Notes: a model not told the origin generated them from the letters alone. A stretch of DNA of 64,000 nucleotides from Candidatus Saccharibacteria bacterium RIFCSPHIGHO2_12_FULL_41_12 (GCA_001790445.1 MGCQ01000001.1:187157-251156); one strand, 5' to 3'; shown: positions 17,655-61,511, numbered from the stretch's first letter. A program made the numbers and translations.

Positions 17655-17663
17655 CTTGGTTGG

Positions 17664-22848: not shown

Positions 22849-22857
22849 CTTGGTTAG

Positions 22858-22863: not shown

Positions 22864-22915
22864 GCAGTTATCCGTACCTACAGTGGGGTTTGGTGGCTGT
22901 GTTTATCCAATATAT

Positions 22916-23422: not shown

Positions 23423-23431
23423 CTTGGTTAG

Positions 23432-23437
23432 ATTATA
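23432..23437 (-). promoter_or_regulatory. -10 box TATAAT 9 nt upstream of the ATG of the SET-domain gene (leaderless-type)
   Basis: Minus strand reads ACTGGTATAAT-CTAACCAAG-ATG. The 9-nt spacer is identical to the one at 22849-22857. The box lies in the 10-nt gap and the 3' end of the upstream gene. Confidence 0.45.
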
Positions 23438-24044
23438 CCAGTTTTGCGATTACACGGGATGGGGAGGCTTCTATGTCTAACTTGAGGGGTAATGCCTGGA
23501 CTGTGAATTGTTTGTTTTCTAGCTGGGCGAGGTTGGTTAGATTTTCTATTATTAGCACATCTCCGCTGAGAAGGATTTTGTGGGTGCTAAAAGGTGGCTG
23601 GTCAGGACTGCACATGTCCATACCGACCATACTGATCTTTTTCTCTAATAAATACTGTGCTATTTCTTCTGGAATTTCTGGTGAGTTATCAAAATATTCA
23701 CTCTGCCCATACAGATCACTCATACCCGTATGGAATAACACAATATCGCCTTCTCTAATATCTGTGTTTTTGAGCTTTTCCAGATCAAATATCTTGTTTT
23801 CTACTTTGATATATACTCCCCTGCCAACAAATTTATCTAGTGGGTACTTATCAATGGTCTTGCCGTCTGCAATCATGTGAAGTGGTGCATCAATATGAGT
23901 CCCCACATGCGTACCAACAGATACATAATGGTCATTATAACCATCTTTATCAAAAACCCCAGCTACCTCAATTTTGGTAGCAGGATCTCCCGGATAAACC
24001 GGCGTCCCCTCGTTCAAAACCACAGATAAATCAACTATTTTCAT
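23433..24044 (-). CDS. Cyclase-family protein (kynurenine formamidase-like)
   Basis: 203 aa with the motif HVGTHIDAPLH. Confidence 0.75.
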   Translation of the reverse strand: MKIVDLSVVLNEGTPVYPGDPATKIEVAGVFDKDGYNDHYVSVGTHVGTHIDAPLHMIADGKTIDKYPLDKFVGRGVYIKVENKIFDLEKLKNTDIREGDIVLFHTGMSDLYGQSEYFDNSPEIPEEIAQYLLEKKISMVGMDMCSPDQPPFSTHKILLSGDVLIIENLTNLAQLENKQFTVQALPLKLDIEASPSRVIAKLV

Positions 24045-24808: not shown

Positions 24809-26238
24809 TTTGATAAATCCTTGTTAACGTCGTTAATTTTAACTCGCTTTTGTTCGGCTGTGTCTCTGTCGCGGATTGTTACTGTGTTGTCCTCCAAGGT
24901 GTCGAAGTCTATTGTTATGCAGTATGGGGTGCCGATTTCGTCTTGGCGTCGGTATCTTTTGCCGATGTTGCCGTTGTCATCCCACATTACGTTTCCGTAC
25001 TCTTTCTTCAGCATTTTATAGACTTCTTGGGCTTTTTTGACCAGTTCTGGCTTGTTTTTTAGTAGAGGTGAAACAGCGACTTTCACTGGCGCTAAATGTG
25101 CTGGCAACTTCAAATAGGTTCTTTTCTCTCCGTTAATCTCGTCCTCAGTGTATGCACTAACTAGCACTGCCATAAGCAAGCGCTCTACACCAAAACTTGG
25201 CTCTATCACGTGTGGCACAAATGATTCTTTGCCGTCTTTAGTGCGGTATTCCATGTTTTTGCCTGAGGCTTTTTGGATATTCATAAGATCAAAGTCTGTG
25301 CGATATGCCAGACCAAGTAGTTCATCTCTTTTGTGTGGGAAATCAAACTCAAAATCAATTGTTCGCTTACTGTAATGCGCTCTATCTGCCTCTTCTACCT
25401 CTAGATTGTGAACTGATTCTTTTGGCAGACCAAGTTGGCCTAAGAAAACCTCGATATCTTTGACCCACTTCTCAAATTCCTGTTTCCATTCGTCTTTGTG
25501 AACAAAATATTCAATCTCCATCTGCTCAAACTCACGGCTACGAAAGACAAAATCACGCGGACTGATCTCGTTGCGAAAAGCCTTGCCAATCTGGGCGATA
25601 CCAAACGGCACATCTGGATAAAAACTATCCACCACATTCTTATAATTGGTAAATATCCCCTGCGCAGTCTCCGGCCGCAGGTATGTAGTATTTGGTCCCA
25701 CCACCTCACGATGCAACAAATCATCAACTGTAATTTTTACTTCTTCTAATTTATCTTTATTCATTGCGTCTATGTATTTTTGCGCAACTTTCTTTTCAAG
25801 AATCAGTCCTCTTTCTCCGGCGAATGGTCCAATTCTTGTCTCAAACATCATATTGAACTGCATCGGTTCATCAAAAGTTCCCTCTTTGCCACAAGTTGGA
25901 CATTTATCACCCTCTAAATGATCTGCTCGAAAGCGTGATTTGCAGTTTTTACATTCAACCAACGGATCTGTAAAAGTATCTACGTGACCACTAGCTTGCC
26001 AGACTTTCTGGTTCATCAAAATAGCTGCGTCAACACCGTACATGTCATCTCTATCTTCTACAAATGTCTTCCACCAGAGGTTCTGAATGTTCCTCTTTAA
26101 AGTCACACCAAGAGGCCCATAGTCCCATGTACCGCTCAGACCGCCATAAACCTCAGAACCCTGATAAATAAACCCACGGCGTTTACACAAACTTACGATA
26201 CTATCCATGCTGACTTTTTCTTTATTCTCTTTACTCAT
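24805..26238 (-). CDS. glyQS: Glycine--tRNA ligase (alpha2 type)
   Basis: 477 aa. The N-terminal VSLCKRRGFIYQGSEVYGGLSGTWDYGPLG region and class II motifs are typical of GlyQS. Confidence 0.93.
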   Translation of the reverse strand: MSKENKEKVSMDSIVSLCKRRGFIYQGSEVYGGLSGTWDYGPLGVTLKRNIQNLWWKTFVEDRDDMYGVDAAILMNQKVWQASGHVDTFTDPLVECKNCKSRFRADHLEGDKCPTCGKEGTFDEPMQFNMMFETRIGPFAGERGLILEKKVAQKYIDAMNKDKLEEVKITVDDLLHREVVGPNTTYLRPETAQGIFTNYKNVVDSFYPDVPFGIAQIGKAFRNEISPRDFVFRSREFEQMEIEYFVHKDEWKQEFEKWVKDIEVFLGQLGLPKESVHNLEVEEADRAHYSKRTIDFEFDFPHKRDELLGLAYRTDFDLMNIQKASGKNMEYRTKDGKESFVPHVIEPSFGVERLLMAVLVSAYTEDEINGEKRTYLKLPAHLAPVKVAVSPLLKNKPELVKKAQEVYKMLKKEYGNVMWDDNGNIGKRYRRQDEIGTPYCITIDFDTLEDNTVTIRDRDTAEQKRVKINDVNKDLSK

Positions 26239-26247
26239 ATTGCAATT

Positions 26248-26253
26248 ATTATA
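26248..26253 (-). promoter_or_regulatory. -10 box TATAAT 9 nt upstream of the glyQS ATG (leaderless-type)
   Basis: Minus strand reads TGTTATAAT-AATTGCAAT-ATG. Confidence 0.4.
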
Positions 26254-26785
26254 ACAGATGGCAGGTAAAGTTATAATCAGGGTTTGACTCCACTATAGTC
26301 ACCGGATATTTCTTTTTTAATTTAGGAATAACTTCTTCGACCATTTTTTGCTCATTTTCGACAAATATCAAAGGGTCATCATGGAAATAGCCTTGTTGCC
26401 ACCAACTCTTTTGTGAAAGTCTAGTGGCGCTAACCTCGCTATTTGCCGTTATTAGAATGATTCTAACTGCGCATTCGGGATTCATATCATGAACTTTATT
26501 GAATACGCCCTTATCCATATCGAGATACTGCCATTTGATGAAAACAACATCATTGGTTTTCAATAATTGGCTCACTTCGGCAGATATTGCCAGCCTTTTT
26601 TGTTCTGTTTGATCACCATAAAACTGCGCTGTGATTTCGATACTAATCTTGCTTACAACCAATTTCTTGTTTTCTAAATGTAGGTCAGCCAGCAATTTAT
26701 CTGTCGGTTTATTAGTAATATAGTCGCAGAAAGTCTTCTTCCCAACTGCACTGCTTGTGCCAAAAACCCAAATAATTTCTTTCAT
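26249..26785 (-). CDS. Hypothetical P-loop protein
   Basis: 178 aa with the Walker A-like motif GTSSAVGKKT. Overlaps recO by 4 nt. Confidence 0.45.
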   Translation of the reverse strand: MKEIIWVFGTSSAVGKKTFCDYITNKPTDKLLADLHLENKKLVVSKISIEITAQFYGDQTEQKRLAISAEVSQLLKTNDVVFIKWQYLDMDKGVFNKVHDMNPECAVRIILITANSEVSATRLSQKSWWQQGYFHDDPLIFVENEQKMVEEVIPKLKKKYPVTIVESNPDYNFTCHLL

Positions 26786-28504: not shown

Positions 28505-28544
28505 TACCCCCTAATTATACACTCATTTATATAGAATTTGACCA

Positions 28545-29022
28545 ACAACCTTCCGCCGACACCAAGGTGTCTGATGCGTCATACTTTCTTGTGTTGACAA
28601 GAAAGTATGCAAAGAAACAACAGGCTATTGAATAACATTATTGAAATATCTAAACAATTAACCCAGTTTCTGCGGGACTCCTTCCAGTCGGGCTAAAGCC
28701 TAGTCCTCAAAACATGGCGTTAATCGCTCAGATATTTCATCAGTTATTAAATGGCCTGAAATTTAGTTGCTAGATTATTAATAATATTTTCATAGAAAAT
28801 ATACACTCTGCTTCTGGTCAGGCCTTGAGCAGACCTGAGAGATTTCGTCGAGATTACAACTATTAGACGAGGACTGTCTGAATGACCAAAGGGAGAGAGT
28901 TCCGCAGTCTGTTGTAATCCTCGACTAGAAATCCCACCCGGGTCTGTTCAATCGCCTGTCGGTTTTGGGTTCCGTTTTGCCGAAACAAAATGGAACAAGA
29001 AATGGCTTGCTTGCAAGCCTGC
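28545..29022 (-). repeat. Family-1 composite structured intergenic element, copy C (long form with X module)
   Basis: Modules present: outer hairpin 28558-28571; HP1 28580-28609; X module 28672-28708; core arms 28847-28860 / 28911-28925; GC hairpin 29004-29019. Confidence 0.8.
28985..29022 (-). terminator. Intrinsic terminator-like hairpin downstream of the 29041-29697 gene (GC-hairpin module of copy C)
   Basis: Minus strand reads GGCUUGCAAGCAAGCC followed by AUUUCUUGUUCCAUUUUG, about 20 nt after the stop. Confidence 0.45.
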
Positions 29023-29040
29023 TAATTAGAAATTTCTTAT

Positions 29041-32524: not shown

Positions 32525-32555
32525 AACTACAATGGATTATAACAGATAATAGAGG

Positions 32556-35145: not shown

Positions 35146-35168
35146 TTCCCGCTCCTGAAGATTCTTTG

Positions 35169-35269
35169 TGTCAGATAAATTACAAGGAAGAACTTGAGCA
35201 TCGCAAATGAGCCGTAGTAAAGCTACGGTGAATGCGAAGCGGAAATTCTGACGCAGTAATTTACTGACA
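35169..35269 (+). other. Structured 5' leader upstream of rpmA
   Basis: A 14-bp long-range stem joins 35169-35183 (tgtcagataaattac) to 35256-35269 (gtaatttactgaca). It encloses the hairpin 35212-35228 (ccgtag-taaag-ctacgg). The structure ends 12 nt before the rpmA SD. Confidence 0.4.
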
Positions 35270-35281
35270 GAAAGGATCGAA

Positions 35282-38509: not shown

Positions 38510-40093
38510 TTATTTCAAGGCTTTAATAAAACCGACAAACAATGGGTGTGGTCTGACTGGGCGAGATTTAAATTCTGGGTGAAACTGTGATGCCACATAA
38601 AAGGGGTGGTCTTTACCTTCTATAACCTCGACTAGATTACGCTGCAAATTGCGCCCAACTACGTTGATACCAGATTGTTCTAACACATCCATATAATCAT
38701 TGTTGCACTCATATCTGTGCCGATGTCTCTCGACAATATTTTCGACTTTGTATAGTTCGTAAACCTTCGATGATTTATCAAGTTTGCAGTCATAATTACC
38801 GAGACGCATAGTCCCGCCAGTATTTTCTTTACCGAGCTGATCAGGCATCGTATAAATAACTGGATTTTTAGTATCCGGATCAAATTCTACAGAATTAACG
38901 TCTTTTGTGACAAGTTGACGCCGTACCGCTGCAATAATAGCCACCTGAAGACCTAAGCATAACCCCAAATATGGTATATTTGCCCGAAAAGCATAATCTG
39001 CAGCAAAAATCTTGCCTTCTGCTCCTCTTTGCCCAAAACCACCTGGCACCAAAATACCATCATAATTTTTTAATTGATCTTCAGAATTTAACTTTTCGGA
39101 ATCAATCCAATCAACCTCCAGATCAATGTTATGCCACAACGCTGCAGCGCGAAGCGCCTCAAATACAGATATATATGTATCCTGATTATCTAAATATTTT
39201 GCAACGAAGGCAATGCTCCGTTTTGTACGGTTTTTGGTCAAAGCAAGATCTACCATCTTATGCCATTCTTTGTTTTCCGGTTTTTTGACTTTTAGACCAA
39301 GTCTATTGACAATGTAATCGCCAATTTTTGAGTCTTCCAAAGTTAGCGGGACTTGATAAATGCTCTTTGCGGTTGGCAGTACGACAATGGCTTCTTCTGG
39401 AACACCGCTAAACATACTCGTTTTAGTAACAATATCACGCCCTGGTTGACTCTCACATCTAATTGCCAAAATATCAGGCATAATACCAACTGCACGAAGG
39501 TCTCTAACGGCGTTTTGCGCTGGTTTAGTCTTGAATTCCCCAGAAGCTCCCAAATACGGCGCATAAACAACATGGACAAACAACGCACTGTCATGTCCTT
39601 GCTTGAACCCCAGTTCCCTTATCGCTTCGATAAACGCCGGACTTTCAAAATCTCCGACAGTTCCACCAATTTCTACAATATGCACATCCGAATTTTTACC
39701 AGCCTCTACAATTTTTTTCTGAATCAAATCTGTTAAGTGTGGAATTACTTGAACAGTTTTGCCCAAATAATCCCCGCCTCTTTCTTGTTCTATGAGCTCT
39801 TTAAGAACGCGACCACTCATTAAACTACTTTTTTGAGACATTTCCTCATCTAGAAATCTCTCATAATGCCCGAGGTCAAGATCTGTTTCTGCACCATCTG
39901 CTGTGACAAAACACTCGCCATGTTCTGCCGGATTGAGTGTACCTGCATCAAAATTGAGGTACGGGTCACATTTTTGAATACTAACTTTGAGCCCACGACT
40001 TTTTAGGATGTTTCCGATAGATGCGGCAGTGATGCCTTTGCCAAGCCCAGATAGTACGCCTCCTGAAACAAAAATAAACTTAGTCATAGCCAT
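38510..40093 (-). CDS. pyrG: CTP synthase
   Basis: 527 aa with GGVLSGLGKG and the GATase nucleophile GLCLGLQ. The real start may be the second ATG at 40087 (MTKFIFVSGG). Confidence 0.95.
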   Translation of the reverse strand: MAMTKFIFVSGGVLSGLGKGITAASIGNILKSRGLKVSIQKCDPYLNFDAGTLNPAEHGECFVTADGAETDLDLGHYERFLDEEMSQKSSLMSGRVLKELIEQERGGDYLGKTVQVIPHLTDLIQKKIVEAGKNSDVHIVEIGGTVGDFESPAFIEAIRELGFKQGHDSALFVHVVYAPYLGASGEFKTKPAQNAVRDLRAVGIMPDILAIRCESQPGRDIVTKTSMFSGVPEEAIVVLPTAKSIYQVPLTLEDSKIGDYIVNRLGLKVKKPENKEWHKMVDLALTKNRTKRSIAFVAKYLDNQDTYISVFEALRAAALWHNIDLEVDWIDSEKLNSEDQLKNYDGILVPGGFGQRGAEGKIFAADYAFRANIPYLGLCLGLQVAIIAAVRRQLVTKDVNSVEFDPDTKNPVIYTMPDQLGKENTGGTMRLGNYDCKLDKSSKVYELYKVENIVERHRHRYECNNDYMDVLEQSGINVVGRNLQRNLVEVIEGKDHPFYVASQFHPEFKSRPVRPHPLFVGFIKALK

Positions 40094-40096
40094 GAC

Positions 40097-40261
40097 CTAC
40101 ACACCACACCTTTCTGCCGACCAGCGAAGCTGCCCACTCCAAAGGTGTTCTTGGCGTAGAATCAATTTTTTATTTGTGATACTCACTCCGCCGTACCAAA
40201 TGTACGACTTGTTCCGTTTCTCAATAATAAAATTGATTCTACGTCCAAGTGTGTTGGTCAT
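40097..40261 (-). CDS. Small ORF (54 aa) inside family-2 structured element, stop 3 nt before the pyrG ATG
   Basis: Manual translation gives MTNTLGRRINFIIEKRNKSYIWYGGVSITNKKLILRQEHLWSGQLRWSAERCGV. It is a paralogue of the ORF at 50000-50173, sharing EK.NK.Y..YGGV...QE.LW...AERC. It is below the track's 60-aa cutoff, and its coding status is uncertain. Confidence 0.4.
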   Translation of the reverse strand: MTNTLGRRINFIIEKRNKSYIWYGGVSITNKKLILRQEHLWSGQLRWSAERCGV

Positions 40262-40358
40262 GCTTATAAATATCCCATTTTATCTATATATTCTACATCA
40301 ATTAACTATAAATATCCAATAATAACTTCCACGAACTACTGAAAGTAACTGACAGTGT

Positions 40359-41623: not shown

Positions 41624-41650
41624 TAGACAGATGCGTATTTTAAGCAAAAT

Positions 41651-41823
41651 CTAAGGAGGAAGAGACCTTCCCAAGGTTTTCCCTCCGCCAATTCCCTAAT
41701 TGATAATACACACATCAATCATTACTTGCTCATTATTGATGTGTGCCCATGGAAAGGGAGGATCCCGAAGCTTTAGCTGAGGCTAAGGAGGCGAAAAACC
41801 TCTCTGGGTTTTCCCTCCTTAAG
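41651..41823 (-). repeat. Family-3 3'-flank structured element, copy F (downstream of the CHAP hydrolase gene)
   Basis: Three parts are present. The SD/anti-SD-like hairpin spans 41783-41823. The conserved ccatggaaagggaggatc occupies 41747-41764 on the plus strand. The hairpin 41709-41719 / 41735-41745 and a third hairpin at 41651-41687 complete the element. Confidence 0.65.
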
Positions 41824-43018: not shown

Positions 43019-43125
43019 GTGATAAATCCTCAAATTGCAAGATATTTGACAAAGTCTATGTTGTGCGGCTAAAACACTTCACATTTAATGCGATACGGCT
43101 CAGGTGGGTATAGTACGATCTAACA

Positions 43126-43600
43126 GCATTGCGATAAAACCTTACACGCTTTTTATCACCTTACTTTTTCTCAGTAGCAAGAAAAAGTAAGCAAAAAGTG
43201 CCACCCTTAGCTAAAAACAATCCATGAACTATTCAAACAACCTCTTAGCAGGCTTGCAGGCAAGCCATCTCTTGTTCCATTTTTGTGTCGACAAAAACGG
43301 AACCCAAAAAACGACAGGCTATGAACAGACTTGATGAGACTACCAGTCGATAGTTACAACAGCCTGCGGAACTCAGCCAGTAAACTGGCTTCAAACAGTC
43401 CTCGCCTTAGTAGTTGTAACATCGACGTAGTCTCTCGGGTCTGGTTCATGGCCTGAGAAGGCTTCCCTAGTATATTTCCTTAGGAAATATTATTAATCAT
43501 GACTTTAGACTGCTATTGGTCAGGCTGTTGTTTGTTTGTATACTTTCTTGTCAACACAAGAAAGTATGGTGATTAAATCCTTGAGCTTTAAGTGCAATGG
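43126..43600 (+). repeat. Family-1 composite structured intergenic element, copy D (both hairpin ends present, most divergent core)
   Basis: Modules present: left end with HP2 43160-43191; GC hairpin 43251-43266; core arms 43346-43360 / 43413-43426; apical hairpin 43375-43390; HP1 43540-43567; right end to 43600. Confidence 0.8.
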
Positions 43601-43624
43601 AAATTAAAAGCTGTATTTTATTTC

Positions 43625-46264: not shown

Positions 46265-47304
46265 GCCAAAAATTATCAGAAATAGACATAACATATGGCG
46301 AAAACCCCCAGCAAAAATGCTACGGCATTGATATGGCGACTGGAGTCGCAAATGACCCACTCGCCATCGGTAATTTTGAGCTAACTCAGGGTGCAAATCC
46401 AAGTTTTTGTAATATAACAGATTTGGACAGAATGCTCCAAACAATCACTCACATCGCTGCTGTGTATTTTCTAAACACAGGCAAAACTCCACTGATTGCT
46501 ATCGGTGCAAAACACGGTAATGCCTGTGGTGTTAGTGTTAGCGAGAACTGGGAGCAAGCCGTTCATAACATGCTAAATGGTGATCTGCGGGCTATTTTTG
46601 GCGGATCGATAATGGTCAGCTTCCCCGTTGATGGCGAAATAGCTAACGAGCTAGTCACTTATAATTCAAAGTTTGGCAAAAGACTGCTGGATATGGTGGT
46701 GGCTCCGTTTTTTACTCCAGAAGCTCTAGAAGTTCTGCAAAGGAAAAATGGAAAACTCCGTCTTTTTGCTAACCCGGCGCTAGCTACATTGGATAAAAAT
46801 TCTCTTGACTGCCAAAAAAGAGACCGATACCTGCGTGGTGGACATATCACTCAGGATAATTACACAAATATTTTTGATTTTAAATCTCCCGCAGTAACCA
46901 AAAATGCTATCGAGATGTCTGAGGGGCAAAAGAGCTCACTCATGCTTGCTTGGGCAATCGCTGTGACCAGTAACAGCAACACAATTACATTGGTCAAAGA
47001 CAATATGCTTATCGGCAACGGCGTAGGACAGCAAGACCGAGTTTCTGCCGCAGAACTTGGCGTCAAAAGAGCTAGCGCCGCCGGACATGACACCAATGGA
47101 TCAGTGGCTTTTGGTGATAGTTTCTTCCCGTTCACGGACGGCCCAGAGGTCTTGGCAAAAGCTGGCGTTAGTGCAATACTCACCACTAATGGCTCCGTCA
47201 AAGACGCCGAAGTTGCGAAGTCTCTAACAGATAGAAATGTTGTCTTCTGGACTGTACCTGACAATGCTGGCTCCGACTCCGGGCGTGGCTTCTACGCCCA
47301 CTAA
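46261..47304 (+). CDS. purH: AICAR transformylase domain only (PurH C-terminal half, no MGS-like IMPCH domain)
   Basis: 347 aa with YGENPQQK, AKHGNACGV and GDSFFPFTDG motifs of the AICARFT domain. The length matches the transformylase half alone. Confidence 0.8.
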   Translation: MSQKLSEIDITYGENPQQKCYGIDMATGVANDPLAIGNFELTQGANPSFCNITDLDRMLQTITHIAAVYFLNTGKTPLIAIGAKHGNACGVSVSENWEQAVHNMLNGDLRAIFGGSIMVSFPVDGEIANELVTYNSKFGKRLLDMVVAPFFTPEALEVLQRKNGKLRLFANPALATLDKNSLDCQKRDRYLRGGHITQDNYTNIFDFKSPAVTKNAIEMSEGQKSSLMLAWAIAVTSNSNTITLVKDNMLIGNGVGQQDRVSAAELGVKRASAAGHDTNGSVAFGDSFFPFTDGPEVLAKAGVSAILTTNGSVKDAEVAKSLTDRNVVFWTVPDNAGSDSGRGFYAH

Positions 47305-47309
47305 GAAAC

Positions 47310-47421
47310 CTTAAGGAGGGGAAACCCAAAAAGGTTTTTCGCCTCCTTAGACTACGCTATCGCTCCGTGATCCTCCCTTTCCATAGTTAATAATTCTGAT
47401 GAGTAAATAATCAGAATTATT
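47310..47421 (+). repeat. Family-3 3'-flank structured element, copy G (downstream of purH)
   Basis: The SD/anti-SD-like hairpin spans 47310-47350 (cttaaggaggggaaaccc-aaaaa-ggtttttcgcctccttag). The conserved gatcctccctttccat occupies 47369-47384. The hairpin 47389-47400 / 47410-47421 follows. Confidence 0.65.
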
Positions 47422-47610
47422 GTGTTTAATTACTACTATAGGGTGTGGTTGATGTAGGCGATACAATTTTGAACAAGAATAATCAAATCGTCGTGACCAA
47501 ACATAAACTATACTCTAATAATTTACACGATCGTTTAAATTATTAGAATTGCTATTTTGATTAGATTACTGTGTTTTGTCTGGCAAGACTATTGAGTAAA
47601 GTCTGACTTA

Positions 47611-48690
47611 TTAACTTAAGTTTTGATTTATGTAGGCGGTGATGAAGTCGTCTATGTCACCGTCTAGGACTTTATCGGGGTCTGACGTCTCGTATTTTGT
47701 GCGTAAGTCTTTAACTTGTTTGTATGGATGTAAAACGTAACTTCTGATTTGGTTCCCCCACTCTGCTGAGACATTTGGGCCTTTAAGATCTTGAATCTTC
47801 TCTTTGTGTTGTTGGAGTTGCAAAGCGACAAGTTTAGAACGCAAAATAGACATGGCCGTTTCTTTGTTCTGGATCTGACTCCGCTCATTTTGAATGCTTA
47901 CAGTCAGTCCTGTCGGCAAGTGCGTGACCCGCACAGCCGAGTCGGTTGTATTGACGCTTTGTCCGCCATGCCCGCCTGCTCGAAACACATCAATTTTGAG
48001 ATCCTTTTCGTCAATTTGCAGTGCTTCAGGTTTATCAATCTTGGGCAAAATATCCACTTTGGCAAAACTGGTTTGACGTAAATTGTCTGCATTGAAAGGA
48101 CTGAGTCTAACGAGACGATGCACCCCTGCCTCGCCCTTTAGCTTTCCGTATAAATAATTACCACCTATGAGCTCTACCTGGACGCTTTTCAAACCTGCTT
48201 CTTCACCAGAGGATTCTTCTATAACAGATGACTTGATTCCGTTCTTCTCTGCCCAGCGCAGGTACATTCTGAGTAACATTTGTGTCCAATCTTGTGCATC
48301 AGTGCCTCCTGCTCCAGCGAAAATTTCTAGATATACATCCGCATCGTCATACGGCCCACTAAATGCCAGCTCAATCTTTTTAGATTCAAACCGCTCAGTA
48401 ATTTGTTCGAACTGAGATTCAATATCACCAGCTAGTGACGGATCATCCATCCCCGCCAATTCAACCAAATCTTTGCTGTCATTTTTAAGACTTTGCCACT
48501 CAGAAATCTTATTCTCAAGCTTTGAAATTTCCTGCATGACTCCACTTGCCCGACTAGAATCTTGCCAAAAGTCAGACTGCCCAGATTCTGTCTTTTTTTG
48601 TTCCAAAATATTGATATCTTTATCCACGCCTAGCTTCTGATAAGCCTGCTCAATGTCTTTTTGAAGTAGTTCTACTTGCTTTTTATCCAT
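47611..48690 (-). CDS. prfB: Peptide chain release factor 2 (uninterrupted, no programmed frameshift)
   Basis: 359 aa with the SPF tripeptide (RLSPFNA) and GGQ (GGHGGQSVN). A single continuous ORF runs from the N-terminus. Confidence 0.92.
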   Translation of the reverse strand: MDKKQVELLQKDIEQAYQKLGVDKDINILEQKKTESGQSDFWQDSSRASGVMQEISKLENKISEWQSLKNDSKDLVELAGMDDPSLAGDIESQFEQITERFESKKIELAFSGPYDDADVYLEIFAGAGGTDAQDWTQMLLRMYLRWAEKNGIKSSVIEESSGEEAGLKSVQVELIGGNYLYGKLKGEAGVHRLVRLSPFNADNLRQTSFAKVDILPKIDKPEALQIDEKDLKIDVFRAGGHGGQSVNTTDSAVRVTHLPTGLTVSIQNERSQIQNKETAMSILRSKLVALQLQQHKEKIQDLKGPNVSAEWGNQIRSYVLHPYKQVKDLRTKYETSDPDKVLDGDIDDFITAYINQNLS

Positions 48691-48709: not shown

Positions 48710-49996
48710 TCAGAATATCTGTTGGATTTTGGATTCGAGGTTTTTGACTAGTTCTTTGTCTGCAGTGCCCAAGAAACCTATGGACCAGGTTTTGTCTTTT
48801 AGAATCTTTCTAGCTACGCTCACGCACTGTTCTTTTGTCACGCCCTTGATAAGTTCAGGGATTTTGTCATATTTAATCACACTGTTTTCGTAGCAATATT
48901 TCCACGAATAGCTGTTGGCGATCGAACCAACTGTCTGTGCCCCACGCTGAAAACTACCAAGTGCGTACTCTTTTGCTTGCTCAATTTCCTCATCAGAGAT
49001 GTTGCCAGCTTCTATATCCTTGATCTCTTTGACAATAAGGTCAAATATTCCGCCGATGTTTTTACGGCTAATCTGCCCACCAAACCACCAAATAGAGAAG
49101 TCCTTGTTGTAAGCAACGTCAGAACTTAGGCTATAAGCCCAACCTCTCTCCCGGGCCTCCCCCAAAATCCTAGAATATAGTGTGCCAGTCAAAAGATGGT
49201 TAGTTGCGCCTAGAGCCCGTCTTTCTGATGGTTTTTTGATTGGTTTGTTGGCAATTATATCAATATAAAAATGAAGATTTTCAACAGTTTTATTTTCAAT
49301 CACAAGTGGGGTTTTTAGCATTTTTGGCATTTCATCAGGCAACTCAATTCTACCAATCTCTGACGCAAACTGTGCTTGATCTATCATATTTTTAATTTTC
49401 TTTTCTTTTCCGGGAGGAATGTTCCCTGCGACAATAAAACGCATATTGGAGGCACTGTGGGTCTTTTTGTAGTGATTGACAATGTCTTTCAACTCAATAT
49501 TTTTCATAAGCTCAATACGGTGTTTATCGGTCTCTGCACACAAACCATATTTTTTGCGCATGGCTAGGCTGAGCTGACGGAAATAATTATTATTGCGAGA
49601 GATCAACTCTTCTTCTACGTTGCCGTATTCGCCCTTATATTCTTGCTCCAAAAACTTTGGTTTGGTGATAGCAAGCAGTAGTAAATCAGTGATCCTCTCC
49701 CACTCAAAATCAGCACATTCTGCAACATAACTTATCCCGTATGCCCCTGTACTAGCATTACAGTAAGCACCGTTTTTCTCAAATTCCTGTTGAAAAAGCC
49801 TTGCTTTGGGATATTTATCATTGGCACCAAGAAGCATGTGCTCCATTAGGTGAGGAACTTCCCACTTTTTCTTTGATACTAAAAACTCACCAGCAATAAA
49901 TTGGAACTCCAATGTCATCACCTGGGCACCTGGTACATTGATTATTAGGCCTTTGGCCCCACCCCCCAGGCTAACTTTTTTTACTCTATGTTTCAC
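48710..49996 (-). CDS. M16-family zinc peptidase (pitrilysin/insulinase-like)
   Basis: 428 aa with the inverted zinc motif HLMEH. GTG start lies 3 nt after the stop of the small upstream ORF. Confidence 0.8.
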   Translation of the reverse strand: MKHRVKKVSLGGGAKGLIINVPGAQVMTLEFQFIAGEFLVSKKKWEVPHLMEHMLLGANDKYPKARLFQQEFEKNGAYCNASTGAYGISYVAECADFEWERITDLLLLAITKPKFLEQEYKGEYGNVEEELISRNNNYFRQLSLAMRKKYGLCAETDKHRIELMKNIELKDIVNHYKKTHSASNMRFIVAGNIPPGKEKKIKNMIDQAQFASEIGRIELPDEMPKMLKTPLVIENKTVENLHFYIDIIANKPIKKPSERRALGATNHLLTGTLYSRILGEARERGWAYSLSSDVAYNKDFSIWWFGGQISRKNIGGIFDLIVKEIKDIEAGNISDEEIEQAKEYALGSFQRGAQTVGSIANSYSWKYCYENSVIKYDKIPELIKGVTKEQCVSVARKILKDKTWSIGFLGTADKELVKNLESKIQQIF

Positions 49997-49999
49997 AAC

Positions 50000-50173
50000 C
50001 TATGCAACACACCTTTCTGCTAACTGGCAAAGCCAGCAATTCCAAAGGTATTCTTGACCAAAAACAGCTTTTTCTTTTGCGAGATTCACTCCACCGTACT
50101 TCAGGTACGGCTTGTTCCATTTCTCAAAGAGAAAAGCTGTTTTTAACTCAAGTGCAAAGGTTATGATTTTCAT
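50000..50173 (-). CDS. Small ORF (57 aa) inside family-2 structured element, overlapping the secA stop (TAATG) and ending 3 nt before the M16 start
   Basis: Manual translation gives MKIITFALELKTAFLFEKWNKPYLKYGGVNLAKEKAVFGQEYLWNCWLCQLAERCVA. It is a paralogue of 40097-40261 and below the track cutoff. Its coding status is uncertain. Confidence 0.45.
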   Translation of the reverse strand: MKIITFALELKTAFLFEKWNKPYLKYGGVNLAKEKAVFGQEYLWNCWLCQLAERCVA

Positions 50174-52773
50174 TATTTTCTTTTTCTAGCTTTACTTTTT
50201 CTGGTTCGTTCAGCTTTACGCGCCTTTTTCTTGTTCTTGACCTGCTTTTTGGTCGCAGATCTGTCAGATTTTTGTTTTATAGAAAAATCTTCTTCTGCAT
50301 AACTATCAGCATGGAGAATTCGATCGGCGTTATCAACAGAATGTTTAGCGGCTAGAGTTAGCTCTGTTTCTACTGGCTCAGTTTCTACATCTACTGCCTC
50401 AATCCTTAGAATTGTCTTTGCAAAGATACTCCTTAGGCTCAACTGCATATTTTCAAAAATCTTTTGTGATTGTTTACGGTATTCGACTAACGGATCCCTC
50501 TGAGCCACTCCAACCCAGTGAATTCCTTGCTTTAAATAATCCATGTTCTCAAGGTGCTCCATCCAATGCTCATCAAGTAACTGGAAATAAATATCTCTTT
50601 CGACTTTTCTAAAGGTTTCTTCGCCAAATTCCTTTTCTTTGGCTATATATAGCTTGTCTACCTCACGGATAAGTTCTTTTTCAAACTCCTTTGGAGTTAA
50701 GTCAAATAGCCTGTCAAGCACATTGTCATCAAGCGGGAAAATACTTCTCAAAAATTCTTCATAATCCTTTGTTGTGGCCATCGGTGAATTAGCCAAATCT
50801 TCCGCCTCTGTCTTCAAAAATTGCTTTACCCTAGGCGATATATCTGGATTGTGGAGAATTTCACGACGCATAGAATACGTTGCACGACGGTGGCGGTTCA
50901 TAACATCATCGTATTTAACGACGTTTTTACGCATGTCGAAGTTAAAGCCCTCGACCTTTTCCTGCGCGCCTTCAAGACTTTTAGAAATGGTTCTATTCTG
51001 CACCGGTGTAGTGTCGTCAACTTTGAGTCGATTCATCAGCCCTAGGATCTTGTCACCACCGAAGATTCGCATCAAATCATCTTCGCATGATACAAAGAAC
51101 TGAGTCTTTCCTGCGTCGCCCTGACGTCCAGAACGCCCTCGTAATTGATTATCTATTCGACGCGATTCGTGTCTTTCAGATCCCAGTACGAACAGCCCAC
51201 CAGCCTTTTTCGCGTCTTCGTCCAGAACTATGTCCGTCCCACGTCCAGCGATGTTAGTTGCCAGCGTTACCGCGCCCTTTTGCCCGGCTTTGGCGATAAT
51301 TGTTGCTTCCCGCTCGTTATTCTTGGCATTTAGAATTTGATGAGGAATTTTGGCCTCCGTCAAGAATTTGCTCAATGCCTCGTTTTTTTCGATTGATGCA
51401 GAACCAATCAGTACTGGTTGCCCCTTTTTATGCAATTCTTTGACTAGTTCGATTATAGATTTGAACTTGCCGATTTCGTTTTTGTAAATCTTGTCTGGCA
51501 TGTCTTCTCTAATCAGTTTTTTGTTGGACGGTATTTCTAGAACATCAAGCTTGTAAATCATGTGAAACTCTTCTGCTTCTGTTGCTGCAGTTCCTGTCAT
51601 ACCTGATAATTTCTCATAAAGACGGAAATAATTCTGGAACGTAATTGTTGCCAATGTCATGGACTCTTCCTGGATCTCTACGCCTTCTTTGGCCTCAATA
51701 GCTTGGTGCAGTCCCTCGTTATATCGACGACCTTTTAACAACCGGCCAGTGTGTTCATCGACAATAACAATTTCGCCGTCACCAGTAACAACATATTCTT
51801 TGTCGCGGTGAAACAATGCTTCTGCCTTGAGAGCTTGCTCCATGTGGTAGATACTACGGATATTTTCACTAGTATAAAAATGTTTTACCCCGAGGATTTT
51901 TTCTATCAGATCAACACCGTCATCATTAAGCGCTGTTTCTCGACGTTTTTCATCGACTTCATAGTGTTTGTCGCGCTCAAGTTGCCGAGCAATCCGAGCA
52001 AATTGCTCATATGCGGAGGAACTAGACTGAGATGATGACGAGATAATCAGAGGTGTTCGAGCCTCATCGATCAAAATTGAGTCAACCTCATCGACAATAG
52101 CGAAATTTAGCTCTCTTTGGCGAAGTTGTGACTCGTCACGCACCATATTATCGCGCAAGTAATCAAAACCATACTCGTTGTTCGTCCCATATGTTATGTC
52201 TGCACGGTAAGCCTCTTGACGAGTACACGATTTGAGCTTGCGCATTCGTGGATCATCGTGATCTTTGTTGTCATATGTGGAGTCATACATAAATGACTCC
52301 TCGGCGATAATAACACCGATGCTGAGCCCCAAGAAGTCATAAATTTGCCCCATCCAGCCGGCGTCACGTTGGGCTAGATATTCGTTGACGGTGACCACGT
52401 GCACACCTTTGCCAGTGAGTGCATTCAGATATACTGGCAATGTTGCTACTAAAGTTTTTCCCTCACCAGTTTTCATTTCTGCGACCGTGCCCTGGTGCAA
52501 AGCCATTCCGCCAACTAGCTGAACATCGAAATGTCGCATTTTCAACGTTCGCACAGAAGCCTCTCGCACCAGTGCAAAAGCATCCGGCAATATTTTGTCC
52601 AAAGATTCTTTTTCTAGGCGTTTTTTCAGGATTTCTGTTTGTTTTTTGAGCTCTTTGTCAGACATTGCCAGATATTTTGGTGCGAGCACGTTGATGTTTT
52701 TGACGCGTTTAGTCAGTTGTTTGACGCGCTTTACGCCCGGATCACCTAAAACTTTTTTCAATACCTTCTTCAC
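50173..52773 (-). CDS. secA: Preprotein translocase ATPase SecA
   Basis: 866 aa with Walker A MKTGEGKTL, DEAD-like motor motifs and a basic C-terminal tail. GTG start. Confidence 0.95.
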   Translation of the reverse strand: MKKVLKKVLGDPGVKRVKQLTKRVKNINVLAPKYLAMSDKELKKQTEILKKRLEKESLDKILPDAFALVREASVRTLKMRHFDVQLVGGMALHQGTVAEMKTGEGKTLVATLPVYLNALTGKGVHVVTVNEYLAQRDAGWMGQIYDFLGLSIGVIIAEESFMYDSTYDNKDHDDPRMRKLKSCTRQEAYRADITYGTNNEYGFDYLRDNMVRDESQLRQRELNFAIVDEVDSILIDEARTPLIISSSSQSSSSAYEQFARIARQLERDKHYEVDEKRRETALNDDGVDLIEKILGVKHFYTSENIRSIYHMEQALKAEALFHRDKEYVVTGDGEIVIVDEHTGRLLKGRRYNEGLHQAIEAKEGVEIQEESMTLATITFQNYFRLYEKLSGMTGTAATEAEEFHMIYKLDVLEIPSNKKLIREDMPDKIYKNEIGKFKSIIELVKELHKKGQPVLIGSASIEKNEALSKFLTEAKIPHQILNAKNNEREATIIAKAGQKGAVTLATNIAGRGTDIVLDEDAKKAGGLFVLGSERHESRRIDNQLRGRSGRQGDAGKTQFFVSCEDDLMRIFGGDKILGLMNRLKVDDTTPVQNRTISKSLEGAQEKVEGFNFDMRKNVVKYDDVMNRHRRATYSMRREILHNPDISPRVKQFLKTEAEDLANSPMATTKDYEEFLRSIFPLDDNVLDRLFDLTPKEFEKELIREVDKLYIAKEKEFGEETFRKVERDIYFQLLDEHWMEHLENMDYLKQGIHWVGVAQRDPLVEYRKQSQKIFENMQLSLRSIFAKTILRIEAVDVETEPVETELTLAAKHSVDNADRILHADSYAEEDFSIKQKSDRSATKKQVKNKKKARKAERTRKSKARKRK

Positions 52774-57174: not shown

Positions 57175-57183
57175 ATCAATATT

Positions 57184-57189
57184 ATTATA
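57184..57189 (-). promoter_or_regulatory. -10 box TATAAT 9 nt upstream of the serS ATG (leaderless-type)
   Basis: Minus strand reads AGTTATAAT-AATATTGAT-ATG. Confidence 0.4.
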
Positions 57190-57191
57190 AC

Positions 57192-57986
57192 TTACTTCTT
57201 CCCCGATTTCCCGTTGATATGACCGAGGGTAAGTTCTGTTCTAGCGCGGGCGTAGGCGCAATGTTCACATGGACCACCCATGACGCTGACCCCCACCCCT
57301 GGCATTTCTCCCTCCAAACATTCCTTCATTTTCAATAGTGTAGGTTCTATCCATGAATCGTCCCCTTTGTGGGGAAAAACATTAGTCCGAAATTCAATAA
57401 TATTTTTAAAATGTTCCTTGCTGGCATCAGCATTGGCATAAACAAAATAACCTGTATCACTAACCTCAAAACCATTTTGCCGGAGTAACCATTGATAGAC
57501 TTCCATTTGTCGACGATAAGTGTCCTGCCAGCCACCAACTGGACCAAGATCGGTAATTTCTGACGTTTTTGCTGTAGCTTTGTAGTCTACCACAATCAGC
57601 TCACCCGCGGGATTAACCCAAATATCATCGACTGCGCCAAATATTAGCAAATTTGTTGGTTCGTGCAGTGCCTGTACTCCTGTAAAATTATGCCGCCAGG
57701 TATCTAAATCTTTATGGGCATAAGGCTTAGCATCAATCTTAAATTCAGTCTGGAGTGGATGTTTTTTGCCCTCGGCGCGGTAACTATCAAATTCTTTTTT
57801 AAACAATTCATCTATGGCTTTGTTGATATTAAAAGGCGGGCTACTCGGACGTCTGATTTTCATCCTACGATCAAGCCAAAAACACCGCTGACAATTATGA
57901 AAATCCTCAATTTTTGTACGACTAATCTTGAAAGATTCTTTTTGCCCCGGTAAATATGATTTTGTGTTGCGAGTGCTCACTGCCAT
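57192..57986 (-). CDS. PD-(D/E)XK nuclease superfamily protein with a Cas4/AddB-like Cys cluster
   Basis: 264 aa with an N-terminal CQRC, the VVDYK core motif and a C-terminal CEHC. The four Cys match the Fe-S arrangement of Cas4/AddB-type nucleases. Confidence 0.6.
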   Translation of the reverse strand: MAVSTRNTKSYLPGQKESFKISRTKIEDFHNCQRCFWLDRRMKIRRPSSPPFNINKAIDELFKKEFDSYRAEGKKHPLQTEFKIDAKPYAHKDLDTWRHNFTGVQALHEPTNLLIFGAVDDIWVNPAGELIVVDYKATAKTSEITDLGPVGGWQDTYRRQMEVYQWLLRQNGFEVSDTGYFVYANADASKEHFKNIIEFRTNVFPHKGDDSWIEPTLLKMKECLEGEMPGVGVSVMGGPCEHCAYARARTELTLGHINGKSGKK

Positions 57987-57993
57987 TATATTT

Positions 57994-57999
57994 ATTATA
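57994..57999 (-). promoter_or_regulatory. -10 box TATAAT 7 nt upstream of the ATG of the PD-(D/E)XK nuclease gene (leaderless-type)
   Basis: Minus strand reads TGTTATAAT-AAATATA-ATG. Confidence 0.4.
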
Positions 58000-58075
58000 A
58001 CAGGTCAAAAGCCTCAACAGTTAGATTTACTTACCTCCTCCTAACGGGCTTACACACATATGGAAATCTTGTGTC

Positions 58076-58547
58076 GGCTTGCAAGCAAGCCTGATTTTGT
58101 TCCATTTTGAATCGACAAAACGGAACCCAAAAACCGACAGGCGGTTGAGCAGACTTGATGGGATTTCTTGTCGAGGATTACAACAGACTGTGGAACTCTC
58201 TCCCTTTGGTCGTTCAAACAGTCCTCGTCTGATAGTTGTAATCTCGACGAAATCTCTCAGGTCTGCTCAAGGCCTGACTAACAATCTGTATATTTTCTTA
58301 GAAAATATTATTAATAATCTAGCCGCTTAAGCTCCAGGCCCTTGGATAACTGATGAAATATTTCTTCAAGCAACACCATGTTTTGAGGACCAGGCTTTAG
58401 CCCGACCATAGGGAGTCCCGCAAAAACTGGGTTGATTGAAGAGATATTTCAATAATGTTACTTCAATAGCCTGCTATTTCTTTGCATACTTTCTTGTTAG
58501 TACAAGAAAGTATGGTGATTAAAGCCTGGGAGGGTTTAAGCGCAATG
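58076..58547 (+). repeat. Family-1 composite structured intergenic element, copy E (long form with X module)
   Basis: Modules present: GC hairpin 58076-58091; core helix 58146-58270 with arms 58170-58184 / 58235-58248; AT hairpin 58291-58310; X module 58385-58421; HP1 58485-58514; outer hairpin 58521-58537. Confidence 0.8.
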
Positions 58548-58564
58548 AAGCTGTTGCGGATAAA

Positions 58565-59262: not shown

Positions 59263-60525
59263 CTATTTTAATTCTAACACGGCTAGACACTCGATGTGGG
59301 GCGTCCGCGGGAAAAAATTATAGACTACAAAATCTACTACTGAGTACGCCCCGAGCAAGCCAATGTCTCTCATCATGGTCACAGGGTTGCATGAAAGATA
59401 CACCACAGCCTTGGGTTTCACTTCTGATATAGCGAGGGTTACGTTTTTATGAAGTCCCGCCCGTGGGGGATCAACAATTAATATTTTGTCTTTTGTGACG
59501 CATTCCAATGCCTTTTCGCCCTGGGCTTGGATAATTTTTGCTTGCATTTTACTAGTATTCACCTTGGCATATTTAATATTTACAGGTTCGCTCTCTACAA
59601 TTACCGTATCTTTTGCGCCAATTCCCACGCTGATCGTCCCTACCCCGCCGTACATGTCTATAATTGGTTGATCACCAACGTAGTGAGCAATTCTGGCTAT
59701 TGCCAGCTCAAAAACTGGCAGATTAACCTGGAAAAACCCAAGAACTCCATAAGATATATTTTTGTCATTGATAGTTTCGGTTAAAACTTCTTTTCCAAAA
59801 CTCTGTAACTTCTCTGTTGGCAAAGAAGCTGGACTCTGAGGATTAGAATAATATACAAAAAACCCTGTAAACATGTCTGGGACTACAAGTTCAGGAAAAT
59901 CTTTTATCTTAGCGAACAGACAGCCTACTACGTCGCCACTGCTGCTGGTTCTGATGATCAAGGACTTAAGATCACTAGCACGTACATTTTGCGCCTTTAG
60001 TAGCTCTACGGTGGCCGTTGCGACGATATCTATTCTGTCGTCCGCCAAAGCAGAGCCAGAAACGATATTTTTATAATGAGTTCCTCTTTTGAATAATGCC
60101 AGATGAAGTCCCTGCTCATCACCGTAAAAGCTGTATTCCATTTTGTTGCGGTAGCCATAGCTCGATGATTCATCTATATGATTGGCTACCTCAAATTCCG
60201 GCAAAGTTATATTGTGTTGAACCGCCGCGTCAATAACTAACGCCTTTTTTGAGAAAGTCTCATAATTATAATCCATAATTTGCCACGGGCTGGTAGAAAG
60301 ATAGCTTTCGGGCTCTTTGGCTTCAATTCTGTGGCTTGAGGGCTCCAAAACGTTCTGGACTATACCTTCTGCATAGGAATTTTTGCTACGCGTCAGCCTA
60401 ACCTCTACCAACTCTGTCGGCAATCCACCCCAAACAAAGATTTTTTTGCCTGATTGAAGCACTCCAAGAGCTTGCCCGCCCTGAATTAGTTTGTTTATTC
60501 TAACTTTTTCTAGTTTTTTTAGCAT
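59263..60525 (-). CDS. TRAM-domain RNA (uracil-5-)-methyltransferase (RlmD/TrmA family)
   Basis: 420 aa with an N-terminal TRAM-like OB, a SAM fold and the catalytic Cys motif YLSCNP. Confidence 0.75.
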   Translation of the reverse strand: MLKKLEKVRINKLIQGGQALGVLQSGKKIFVWGGLPTELVEVRLTRSKNSYAEGIVQNVLEPSSHRIEAKEPESYLSTSPWQIMDYNYETFSKKALVIDAAVQHNITLPEFEVANHIDESSSYGYRNKMEYSFYGDEQGLHLALFKRGTHYKNIVSGSALADDRIDIVATATVELLKAQNVRASDLKSLIIRTSSSGDVVGCLFAKIKDFPELVVPDMFTGFFVYYSNPQSPASLPTEKLQSFGKEVLTETINDKNISYGVLGFFQVNLPVFELAIARIAHYVGDQPIIDMYGGVGTISVGIGAKDTVIVESEPVNIKYAKVNTSKMQAKIIQAQGEKALECVTKDKILIVDPPRAGLHKNVTLAISEVKPKAVVYLSCNPVTMMRDIGLLGAYSVVDFVVYNFFPRTPHIECLAVLELK

Positions 60526-61511
60526 TATTTGTGCAGAGCTATGGCCAGCACGACATAAACCAAGATTTTCGTTACAAGGTCAATCCTGACAAAGTTCCTC
60601 TCGTAATATATAAAATCTTTGTTCTTACCTGATACGTAACGATATTGATTGACAGCAAATCCAACAAACCCAAGCACGACAACCGCAGACACCACATAGA
60701 CATACCAAGCCAGATTATCTGTAGCCAAGATATATGTGCCCACCGTTGCCCCACAAATTGCTACCCAAGCAACAACTCCTGTAAATAGCGATGCAATGGA
60801 AGCCAGCCAATCAGACTTTTTGCTGTTTGCGTTGTTTCTATCACTGATGAAACCTAGAACAACTGTGGCTACAATTAGTCCTGCAGACATCTTTAGAACT
60901 GCTAAATCATTTAGCCCGACCAACAGCCCGACAAAAGTTAGCGTAATAACTGATGAAATACCAAGATAAATCCACCGCGGCGCTGAAGCTTTGTTTTTCA
61001 AAGATTTTTCGTACATACCACGCTTTTTGGTCGCTGTGATTGCATAACAGACTGCAGAAATAATTAGCAAACCAACCAATACCCACCGTAGGTCAACGGT
61101 GAAAAGATCTTTGACCCCAAGAAGTTGTTGCTGTGGATTCTGAGCCAAGTAGTCTTTTGTCTGATAATAGACCGACACTGTGCCATAAAATGGTTTTATA
61201 ACTAATGCTGTTAGCACTCCAAGCAACACATAGATCAGTGCTGATGATGATACCAAACTATTTAGTTTAACTAGCTTTTCATTATCTTTGTTGCCAAATC
61301 TTGAGGCTAGTGCTGACGCCTTTTGTTTAATTACGCTAAAAATCGCAGGTGATTTCGCTCCTTCGTTGCTCACTGCGGGTGTTGGCGCTTTAGTATTTTT
61401 AGTTACTTTAGTAGTTGCCTTTTTTGCTGGGGCTTTAGTGACTTTTTTTGCTGGCTTTTTTACGGCCTTTTTTGTCGTTTTTTTGGTTGATTTATTACTC
61501 TTCTCACTCAT
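60525..61511 (-). CDS. Hypothetical polytopic membrane protein with a Lys-rich N-terminal tail
   Basis: 328 aa. About 50 aa of K/T/A-rich sequence is followed by about 7 TM helices. Confidence 0.5.
   Translation of the reverse strand: MSEKSNKSTKKTTKKAVKKPAKKVTKAPAKKATTKVTKNTKAPTPAVSNEGAKSPAIFSVIKQKASALASRFGNKDNEKLVKLNSLVSSSALIYVLLGVLTALVIKPFYGTVSVYYQTKDYLAQNPQQQLLGVKDLFTVDLRWVLVGLLIISAVCYAITATKKRGMYEKSLKNKASAPRWIYLGISSVITLTFVGLLVGLNDLAVLKMSAGLIVATVVLGFISDRNNANSKKSDWLASIASLFTGVVAWVAICGATVGTYILATDNLAWYVYVVSAVVVLGFVGFAVNQYRYVSGKNKDFIYYERNFVRIDLVTKILVYVVLAIALHK

Follow-up and report, generated by a model that had tools for sequence, protein, structure and literature searches.

Two homologous structured elements occur in the window, by which we mean the whole stretch of DNA analysed here (64,000 nucleotides (nt) of Candidatus Saccharibacteria bacterium RIFCSPHIGHO2_12_FULL_41_12, GCA_001790445.1 MGCQ01000001.1:187157-251156); copy 1 lies 5′ of pyrG and copy 2 lies at the junction between secA and an M16 peptidase gene. 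The balance of probability favours their being copies of a non-autonomous mobile repeat of Saccharibacteria, about 165-177 nt long and similar in kind to the Rickettsia palindromic elements (RPEs), whose pass-through open reading frame (ORF) would hand ribosomes to a buried host start codon. Precise empty sites in relatives and many unrelated insertion contexts directly support the mobility of the family, and bear out the suggestion of a first-pass annotation that the element is a small mobile cassette. The copies in the window and their parts are as follows.

49997..50173, minus strand: copy 2, whole 177-nt insertion at the junction of secA and the M16 peptidase gene; equals the stretch missing at a relative's secA-TAGTG-M16 junction (L077/L080/L081)
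50000..50173, minus strand: copy 2, candidate pass-through ORF of 57 codons; ATG at 50171-50173 overlaps the secA stop codon (TAATG), TAG at 50000-50002
50153..50166, minus strand: copy 2, 5′ strand of closing helix P1, UCAUAACCUUUGCA; from the minimum-free-energy helices, with P1 covariation in the family
49993..50006, minus strand: copy 2, 3′ strand of closing helix P1, UGCAUAGGUUGUGA; from the minimum-free-energy helices
50053..50152, minus strand: copy 2, long arm P2 with variable lower stem, purine-rich internal loop and tip
50009..50051, minus strand: copy 2, short arm P3, AUACCUUU...AAAGGUGU around GCUGGC-uuu-GCCAGU
40091..40262, minus strand: copy 1, whole element 5′ of pyrG; helices from folding, covariance model score 158.9 bits over 40095-40256
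40248-40262 with 40091-40105, minus strand: copy 1, P1; its P2 is at 40152-40247 and its P3 at 40106-40148
40097..40261, minus strand: copy 1, candidate pass-through ORF of 54 codons; TAG at 40097-40099, 3 nt ahead of the pyrG ATG
about 35160..35278, plus strand: copy 3, divergent and without P3; covariance model score 32.3 bits (E = 4e-7), fold z = -6.4

Folding of the minus strand yields the same three-way junction at both loci, a Y shape formed by P1, the long arm P2 and the short arm P3. The folding free energies are -76.5 kcal/mol for copy 1 and -70.5 kcal/mol for copy 2 (z = -8.8 and -7.3, respectively), and none of 200 dinucleotide shuffles folds as well. The plus-strand folds of both copies are about 13 kcal/mol weaker, consistent with the pair in copy 2 that the first-pass annotation had recognised as U.G on the minus, mRNA-sense strand. 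The lower stem of P2 differs wholly in sequence between the two copies and pairs perfectly in each; the inverted repeats quoted earlier, CGTAGAATCAATTTT / AAAATTGATTCTACG (40155-40169 / 40229-40243) and AAAAACAGCTTTT / AAAAGCTGTTTTT (50060-50072 / 50132-50144), are exact, as are the tip hairpins at 40192-40206 and 50094-50110 and all other sequences and coordinates of the first-pass annotation. Both copies share the P2 tip, G(C/U)CGUAC-n5-GUACGG(U/C), together with a conserved internal loop. In copy 2, the tip is GCCGUAC-n5-GUACGGU at 50093-50111 and the purine-rich loop is UUGAGAAAUGGAACAAG / UGGAGUGAAUCUC.

The two regions had been proposed to be homologous, with a structure that survives replacement of its sequence, and both proposals hold. 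Copies 1 and 2 are 73% identical over 138 nt and 69% identical over 162 modelled positions, and their peptides are 42% identical (E = 5e-14). Across 53 consensus pairs, 32 are identical and 14 have changed on both sides with pairing kept; one-sided changes account for 4 more, and the last 3 lack pairing in one of the copies. Copy 3 is a long hairpin that retains the conserved distal module of P2, and no ORF spans it.

Overall, the family comprises at least 48 distinct copies, 155-177 nt long, in Saccharibacteria/Patescibacteria assemblies, with up to 3-4 copies per 7-8 kb locus. A word-indexed protein search returned the query alone and then 12 family members, and an exhaustive profile search with both peptides was needed to reveal the family. 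The profile search, which sees open-frame copies only, identified 65 divergent cluster representatives in the protein library, with lengths from 46 to 120 amino acids (mostly 56-61), which align without gaps and have common start and stop positions. An ORF-blind DNA pattern, drawn from the conserved P2 loop and tip, was run over genome and metagenome collections. It matched 25 loci in 185,579 species-representative genomes, about 21 of them in assemblies labelled Saccharibacteria, Saccharimonadales or Patescibacteria, and 37 metagenome contigs, about 28 of which are taken as carrying the element. A covariance model, with 22 copies as its input, upheld the true members and brought in further copies overlooked by the DNA pattern; it scores copy 2 at 158 bits over 49998-50159. 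About 10 genome and metagenome matches were not upheld by the model and are treated as chance matches, those with Desulfocapsaceae, Ruminococcaceae and Bacteroides labels among them, and a link to phage was dropped when the single IMG/VR pattern match, likewise not confirmed, was taken as chance. Copies within one genome are between 96% (L028a/L028b) and 71% (the two window copies) identical. The predicted protein of copy 2 (P0001) recurs with identical sequence on 6-10 contigs of the same organism.

Database searches returned no known relative, in agreement with the first-pass annotation, which had not recognised the peptide family and had called for an Rfam check. In Rfam 15, there is no window match at the gathering score, permissive thresholds on both loci give only chance-level matches (E of at least 0.7), and a search of 13 other loci gives no match falling on the element. 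The peptides have no Pfam match under E = 0.06 and no match in a PDB profile search at E <= 1. [quoted passage not shown] Integron attC sites, repeats of diversity-generating retroelements and the IS110 bridge RNA were considered and set aside, with no integrase, reverse transcriptase or recombinase nearby.

The family-wide alignment shows strong covariation. Standard pairs fill 94.4% of the helix cells in the 48 distinct copies, compared with 40-45% once the 3′ partners have been shifted by 1-3 columns; two-sided changes occur at 49 of the 53 pairs, and 0 of 500 shuffles attain the observed values. Within the helices there are 108 G.U and only 17 A.C combinations, and it is therefore one specific strand that folds; the excess is not diminished, and may even be greater, where copies run antisense to the genes beside them. 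The invariant nucleotides cluster in distal P2 (UUGAG-N-AA-NN-GA-NNN-AG, GUAC-n5-GUAC and GA-N-UA-NC), and this distal module is also present in short variants without P3. As a separate observation, the module stands alone or within a different outer hairpin at L028 6342-6387 and L018 2891-2947, which suggests that it is a separable functional unit.

The structure is the conserved entity and the ORF is conditional, because about half of the homologues contain stop codons or frameshifts but keep the fold. In particular, ORF-less copies retain 92-98% pairing through compensatory changes. The first-pass annotation had foreseen an RNA-only element if homologues carried broken frames; about half of those found by the ORF-blind search do, with the fold kept, and yet the frame is still open in most copies that abut a start codon. 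According to context classes that are based on crude ORF calls, with at least one copy (L060) misclassified, the canonical frame is open in 17 of the 21 copies whose 3′ end abuts a same-strand start, as against 7 of the 27 others (Fisher p = 3.6e-4). Family sequences resampled by column and by pair are open with a probability of about 0.20, giving a binomial p of 1e-9 for 17/21. Where the canonical frame of a start-adjacent copy is broken, an ORF in another frame spans the element in L019, L025b and L066, and the gene downstream of the broken-frame copy has its own well-placed Shine-Dalgarno sequence in L019, L021, L022 and L025b.

The frame is kept open, and the peptide sequence is without amino-acid selection. 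Among the 17 ORF-intact copies, variability is lowest at codon position 3 (0.271), compared with 0.399 at position 1 and 0.347 at position 2, and the ORF-less copies show the same ranking; it is thus the nucleic-acid fold that governs how the sequence changes, and the idea of a protein family under amino-acid selection does not stand. Moreover, the conserved positions of the aligned peptides (F, E, Y, Y and L) match conserved nucleotides of the RNA loops, and AlphaFold, supplied with a 42-sequence alignment, predicts a single low-confidence helix (predicted local distance difference test score of 65, predicted template modelling score of 0.26). In the helices, third codon positions face third positions. 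This register was considered as an adaptation for synonymous covariation, an idea left unsupported by the finding that those pairs vary less, not more. A type I toxin was likewise rejected, as the peptide is charged rather than hydrophobic and shows no amino-acid selection.

Comparison of filled and empty sites locates the insertions precisely. A relative with an 87% identical M16 protein (L077/L080/L081) has the same gene order and a secA/M16 overlap reading TAGTG, to which the window adds exactly 177 nt, ATGAAAATCATAACC...GCATAGGTT; relatives at 72% and 52% identity (L078 and L079) also have no element. A filled site in L054 corresponds to an empty one in L041, at an 88% identical orthologue, and the insert starts exactly at the leaderless ATG. 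Ahead of the same regulator gene, the site is filled in L019, L060 and L066 and empty in L075 and L018. The L019 element belongs to a different subfamily, just 53% identical to the L060/L066 copies, which implies repeated insertion or replacement there. An empty site was also sought for the pyrG copy, where the relative's contigs stop short of pyrG.

The host genes are unrelated housekeeping genes: gltX, tsaD, rmlD, rpiB, uppP, pyrG, the M16 peptidase gene and a gene for an aminoacyl-tRNA synthetase. About half of the copies are antisense to, or distant from, any gene start, and many of the copies that do not abut a start border, at their 3′ end, on a convergent gene's stop codon. Further, some copies lie within coding sequences. 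In L030, the element is inserted in frame inside dnaG and accounts for residues 438-491 of 570; the L033 element interrupts a methylpurine-DNA glycosylase (MPG) gene, whose match to the 180 positions of the Pfam profile takes up 234 residues, an interruption of about 54 residues; and the L048 element extends a Y-family DNA polymerase at its N-terminus. The internal insertions of L030 and L033 use a frame other than that of the free-standing small ORFs.

In all 14 of the ORF-type copies examined, P1 or P3 takes up, as paired bases, the start codon of the host gene together with the 14 nt that precede it. For example, the 3′ strand of P1 in copy 2 includes both the TAG stop of the small ORF and the GTG start of M16 (49994-49996), and the pyrG ATG (40091-40093) falls within P1 of copy 1. 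The 54- and 57-codon minus-strand ORFs of the first-pass annotation are present, together with their junctions (TAG-GTC-ATG at pyrG, TAG-GTT-GTG at M16 and TAATG at secA). Its spacing of exactly 3 nt between stop and start applies to both window copies and is common in the family without being universal, as the stop otherwise lies 2-7 nt before the host start or overlaps it. In a related observation, the NCBI protein for the M16 peptidase (window 48710-49996; P0069, 402 amino acids) begins 26 codons 3′ of the element-abutting GTG, and the relatives' 428-amino-acid M16 proteins align starting at that GTG; the start-site annotation seems to have been disturbed by the element.

The genome is poor in Shine-Dalgarno sites, and such motifs precede only 20 of the 61 genes of the window (of the 61 genes called, the minus strand carries 59). 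In many genes, an extended -10 box, TGnTATAAT, lies just 6-10 nt 5′ of the ATG (for example, at 22849-22870, 23423-23444 and 26239-26260), suggesting that leaderless or near-leaderless translation is widespread in this genome. Further instances of the box before an ATG are found at 32525-32546, 57175-57195 and 57987-58007. At empty sites, the host ATG lies 9 nt (L041) or 6 nt (L075) past a -10 box, and at the filled site of L054 the ATG of the small ORF takes the position that the host ATG has in the empty site. In other copies, a -10 box lies 6-14 nt ahead of the ORF start, or the ORF starts 0-17 nt past an upstream stop codon; most copies that are not beside a gene start have no -10 box nearby.

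From these features we infer translation of the small ORF, termination-reinitiation coupling, the molecule that folds (RNA or single-stranded DNA) and the mechanism of transposition. The fold, kept by compensatory change, would be recognised by a mobilising or binding factor, or would make the insert tolerable. The element would settle at gene boundaries and now and then inside genes, and an element placed between an initiation signal and a start codon would persist only if it is transparent to translation. Its stop-free frame would start at a captured initiation site, either a leaderless 5′ AUG past a -10 box or a start coupled to an upstream stop codon (as in the secA TAATG), cross the entire element and end 2-7 nt before the host start or overlap it. 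Because the host start and about 14 nt before it are paired, the M16 peptidase and pyrG are most likely translated by ribosomes that come from the small ORF, melt P1 and reinitiate at the host start. The peptide of 54-57 residues would then be a by-product, with a sequence dictated by the RNA. Coupling is supported indirectly by the open ORF that is specific to start-abutting copies and by the start codon buried in 14 of 14. To this extent the coupling device envisaged in the first-pass annotation gains support, and a ligand- or pathway-specific regulatory role does not, as the host genes are unrelated. For the same reason, a riboswitch or pathway-specific leader was rejected.

Several observations weigh against this account. 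At L015/L034, an orthologous site, identity is 85% for the element and 65% for the adjacent gene, which could indicate a host-level function instead of selfishness. The termini always pair, through P1; their outer 8-14 base pairs have the consensus CAYRACCU...AGGUYRUG in the ORF-type subfamily, and in a closely related ORF-less subfamily they differ in every copy and are always complementary, a pattern that simple terminal-repeat transposition does not predict. The pairs at the very end include the host's start codon or else, where a gene is convergent, the complement of its stop codon. Antisense copies hold the strand-specific fold without an evident promoter, which is unexplained if the fold acts only in mRNA; promoters were searched for ahead of copies antisense to their neighbours, and none is consistent. 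No transposase, integrase, reverse transcriptase or other mobilising gene lies beside any copy in the flanks examined. The candidate target-site duplications are ambiguous: copy 2 is flanked by RTGAAA (matching at 5 of 6 positions) and L054 by ATGA, and both sequences include the start codon and could equally belong to the element. The crudeness of the ORF calls behind the context classes counts on the same side. The behaviour of the outer P1 pairs, the L015/L034 site and the antisense copies therefore keep a host-level RNA function and a single-stranded-DNA mechanism in contention.

Taking the alternatives in order of decreasing probability, an unlikely but credible one is that the copies are host-beneficial cis-acting RNAs spread by duplication, serving as a translational gate or thermosensor, as an RNase III processing or stabilising site, or as a protein-binding site. 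P1 would hold the host start closed and the P2 loop would bind a factor that tunes many housekeeping genes. The very strong conservation of the internal loop and GUAC tip in all subfamilies, module-only short copies included, speaks for such a role, as do the higher identity of the element than of the flanking gene at the orthologous site, the sequestration of every host start examined and a G.U bias that indicates a transcript-like single strand. However, close relatives lack the element at the same junction with no compensating change, the host genes share no common pathway, about half of the copies are antisense to or far from gene starts, some are within coding sequences, and no Rfam family matches.

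Rather improbable is that the element goes beyond tolerated selfish DNA and is a structure-guided mobile RNA or DNA module aimed at gene boundaries, with the conserved P2 loop and GUAC tip as its protein-binding core and a 5′ end that would pair with the start codon of the host gene or with sequence complementary to its stop codon. If this were true, it would mean a way of targeting not described before and a level of translational control that spans the lineage, and dozens of housekeeping genes in leaderless, Shine-Dalgarno-poor Saccharibacteria would need ribosomes to pass through the element.

It is doubtful that the fold acts as single-stranded DNA, as the substrate of a strand-specific HUH transposase or recombinase (IS200/IS605- or REP/RAYT-like) on the lagging-strand template, with the mRNA structure and ORF as consequences. 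This would accommodate the strand-specific G.U (G.T) bias that persists in antisense copies without a nearby promoter, the lack of a clear target-site duplication, and the position of both canonical window copies on the coding strand, which would be the lagging-strand template if genes, 59 of 61 of them in one orientation here, are co-oriented with replication. No flank examined contains a gene for an HUH or other transposase, however, and IS200/IS605 and REP elements have simple subterminal hairpins, to which the three-way junction and its conserved internal loop appear dissimilar.

It is very unlikely that each copy is a gene in its own right for a trans-acting small RNA, present several times per genome. 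Their size of about 165 nt, strong covariation and conserved loops are typical of structured small RNAs and some copies are in promoter-containing spacers, but most copies away from gene starts have no nearby -10 box, others lie within coding genes, copies are missing from close relatives, and copy number and location vary widely. A gene family for a small protein of about 56 residues, with mRNA structure secondary and ORF-less copies as pseudogenes, is the least probable reading and a highly improbable one: it would suit the 65 divergent, gap-free representatives with common start and stop positions and the frame that is open far above expectation beside gene starts, but not the low variability of third codon positions with a like ranking in ORF-less copies, the coincidence of conserved residues with conserved RNA loop nucleotides, the compensatory pairing by which ORF-less copies are seen not to be decaying, the other frame read in dnaG and the glycosylase, or the single low-confidence helix with no Pfam or PDB relative.

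As a mobile repeat, the family is best classed as a Saccharibacteria-specific, new variant of protein-coding palindromic mobile repeats, distinguished by its three-way junction and by a frame that is kept according to context. RPEs (Ogata et al. 2000 Science, 2002 Genome Res), as far as they are recounted in PMC10969869, insert in frame in genes. The two families are alike in being short (about 150 nt) palindromic repeats of host-dependent bacteria with reduced genomes, with many copies in unrelated housekeeping genes and intergenic DNA, in-frame insertions that add a peptide segment to host proteins (here DnaG, the glycosylase and the polymerase), no associated transposase and a peptide without known function. 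They belong to different phyla, and the likeness is one of kind and not established homology. In contrast to RPEs, the translated copies described here are mostly separate small ORFs exactly before a host start rather than internal fusions, the frame is kept only where the translation context requires it, a three-way junction that bears a conserved internal-loop module replaces the simple palindrome, and insertion polymorphism is seen between relatives at 87-88% protein identity.

The ERIC, BOX and RUP repeats of enterobacteria and pneumococci are ORF-bearing MITEs or intergenic repeats (Delihas 2007, as cited in PMC10969869). Similar to the present family, they are non-autonomous repeats of 100-200 nt with strong RNA hairpins, found within operons and sometimes with ORFs or in genes; in contrast, they have conserved terminal repeats and recognisable TA or other duplications, whereas here the outer P1 is copy-specific in one subfamily and the duplication is ambiguous. 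To our knowledge, a stop-free frame selected by context has not been described for these repeats.

Translation of an upstream ORF melts the structure over the next start in the coat-replicase pair of phage MS2 and in erm leader peptides. The proposed coupling resembles these cases in that a small ORF stops 2-7 nt before, or overlaps, the next start, which is paired in a stable helix; it differs in that the device is carried by a mobile repeat before many unrelated genes, has no evident regulatory input, and would operate through a coupling that is deduced from the arrangement.

The region contains other repeats and variable features. Family 1 consists of five copies of about 400-580 nt in both orientations (5644-6028, 11114-11685, 28534-29034, 43027-43621 and 58012-58563), with long near-invariant stretches and several hairpins (for example, CATACTTTCTTGT-n4-ACAAGAAAGTATG), no Rfam match and no convincing ORF. 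It also looks mobile, because two of its copies (at about 43027-43621 and 58012-58563) are missing in the syntenic relative L080. Between the convergent purH and prfA genes, the window has about 304 nt (47303-47623) and L080 just 17 nt; the insert includes a CTTAAGGAGG...CCTCCTTAG hairpin like the repeats at 41640-41686 and 41772-41818 (41640-41818) and may represent a third repeat family. A direct-repeat family, TTTCATCTTGGTTAGATTATA.CAG, occurs at 17649-17682, 22241-22272, 22843-22876, 23417-23450 and 26235-26266 and is the reverse complement of a promoter plus start codon (CTG.TATAATCTAACCAAGATGAAA) ahead of tandem paralogous genes of about 170-200 amino acids. The segment 52844-55553 encodes a restriction enzyme of the NgoPII type along with a DNA methylase and a cupin, where L080 has one short-chain dehydrogenase gene, and looks like a strain-specific restriction-modification island. 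Among the compared sequences, the minus strand of L025 1534-1611, from a Patescibacteria genome, matches the AdoCbl-II riboswitch at 43 bits, above the gathering score, and L080 1063-2040 carries a heliorhodopsin Pfam annotation, with the window gene at 60525-61511 (328 amino acids) as its syntenic counterpart.

The mobile family bears on how these genomes are annotated. Gene callers label the small ORFs as hypothetical proteins (65 clusters in the protein library) and may misplace the starts of the genes that follow. The covariance model could serve for masking, for strain typing by insertion polymorphism, and for a search for the mobilising factor. The family is also a natural experiment in dual constraint, with the fold kept everywhere and the frame stop-free only where ribosomes must pass. 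Protein-coding palindromic repeats had been described as a peculiarity of Rickettsia; Saccharibacteria are another ultra-small, host-dependent lineage, and the apparently independent origin of such repeats there suggests that they are a recurrent outcome of extreme genome compaction.

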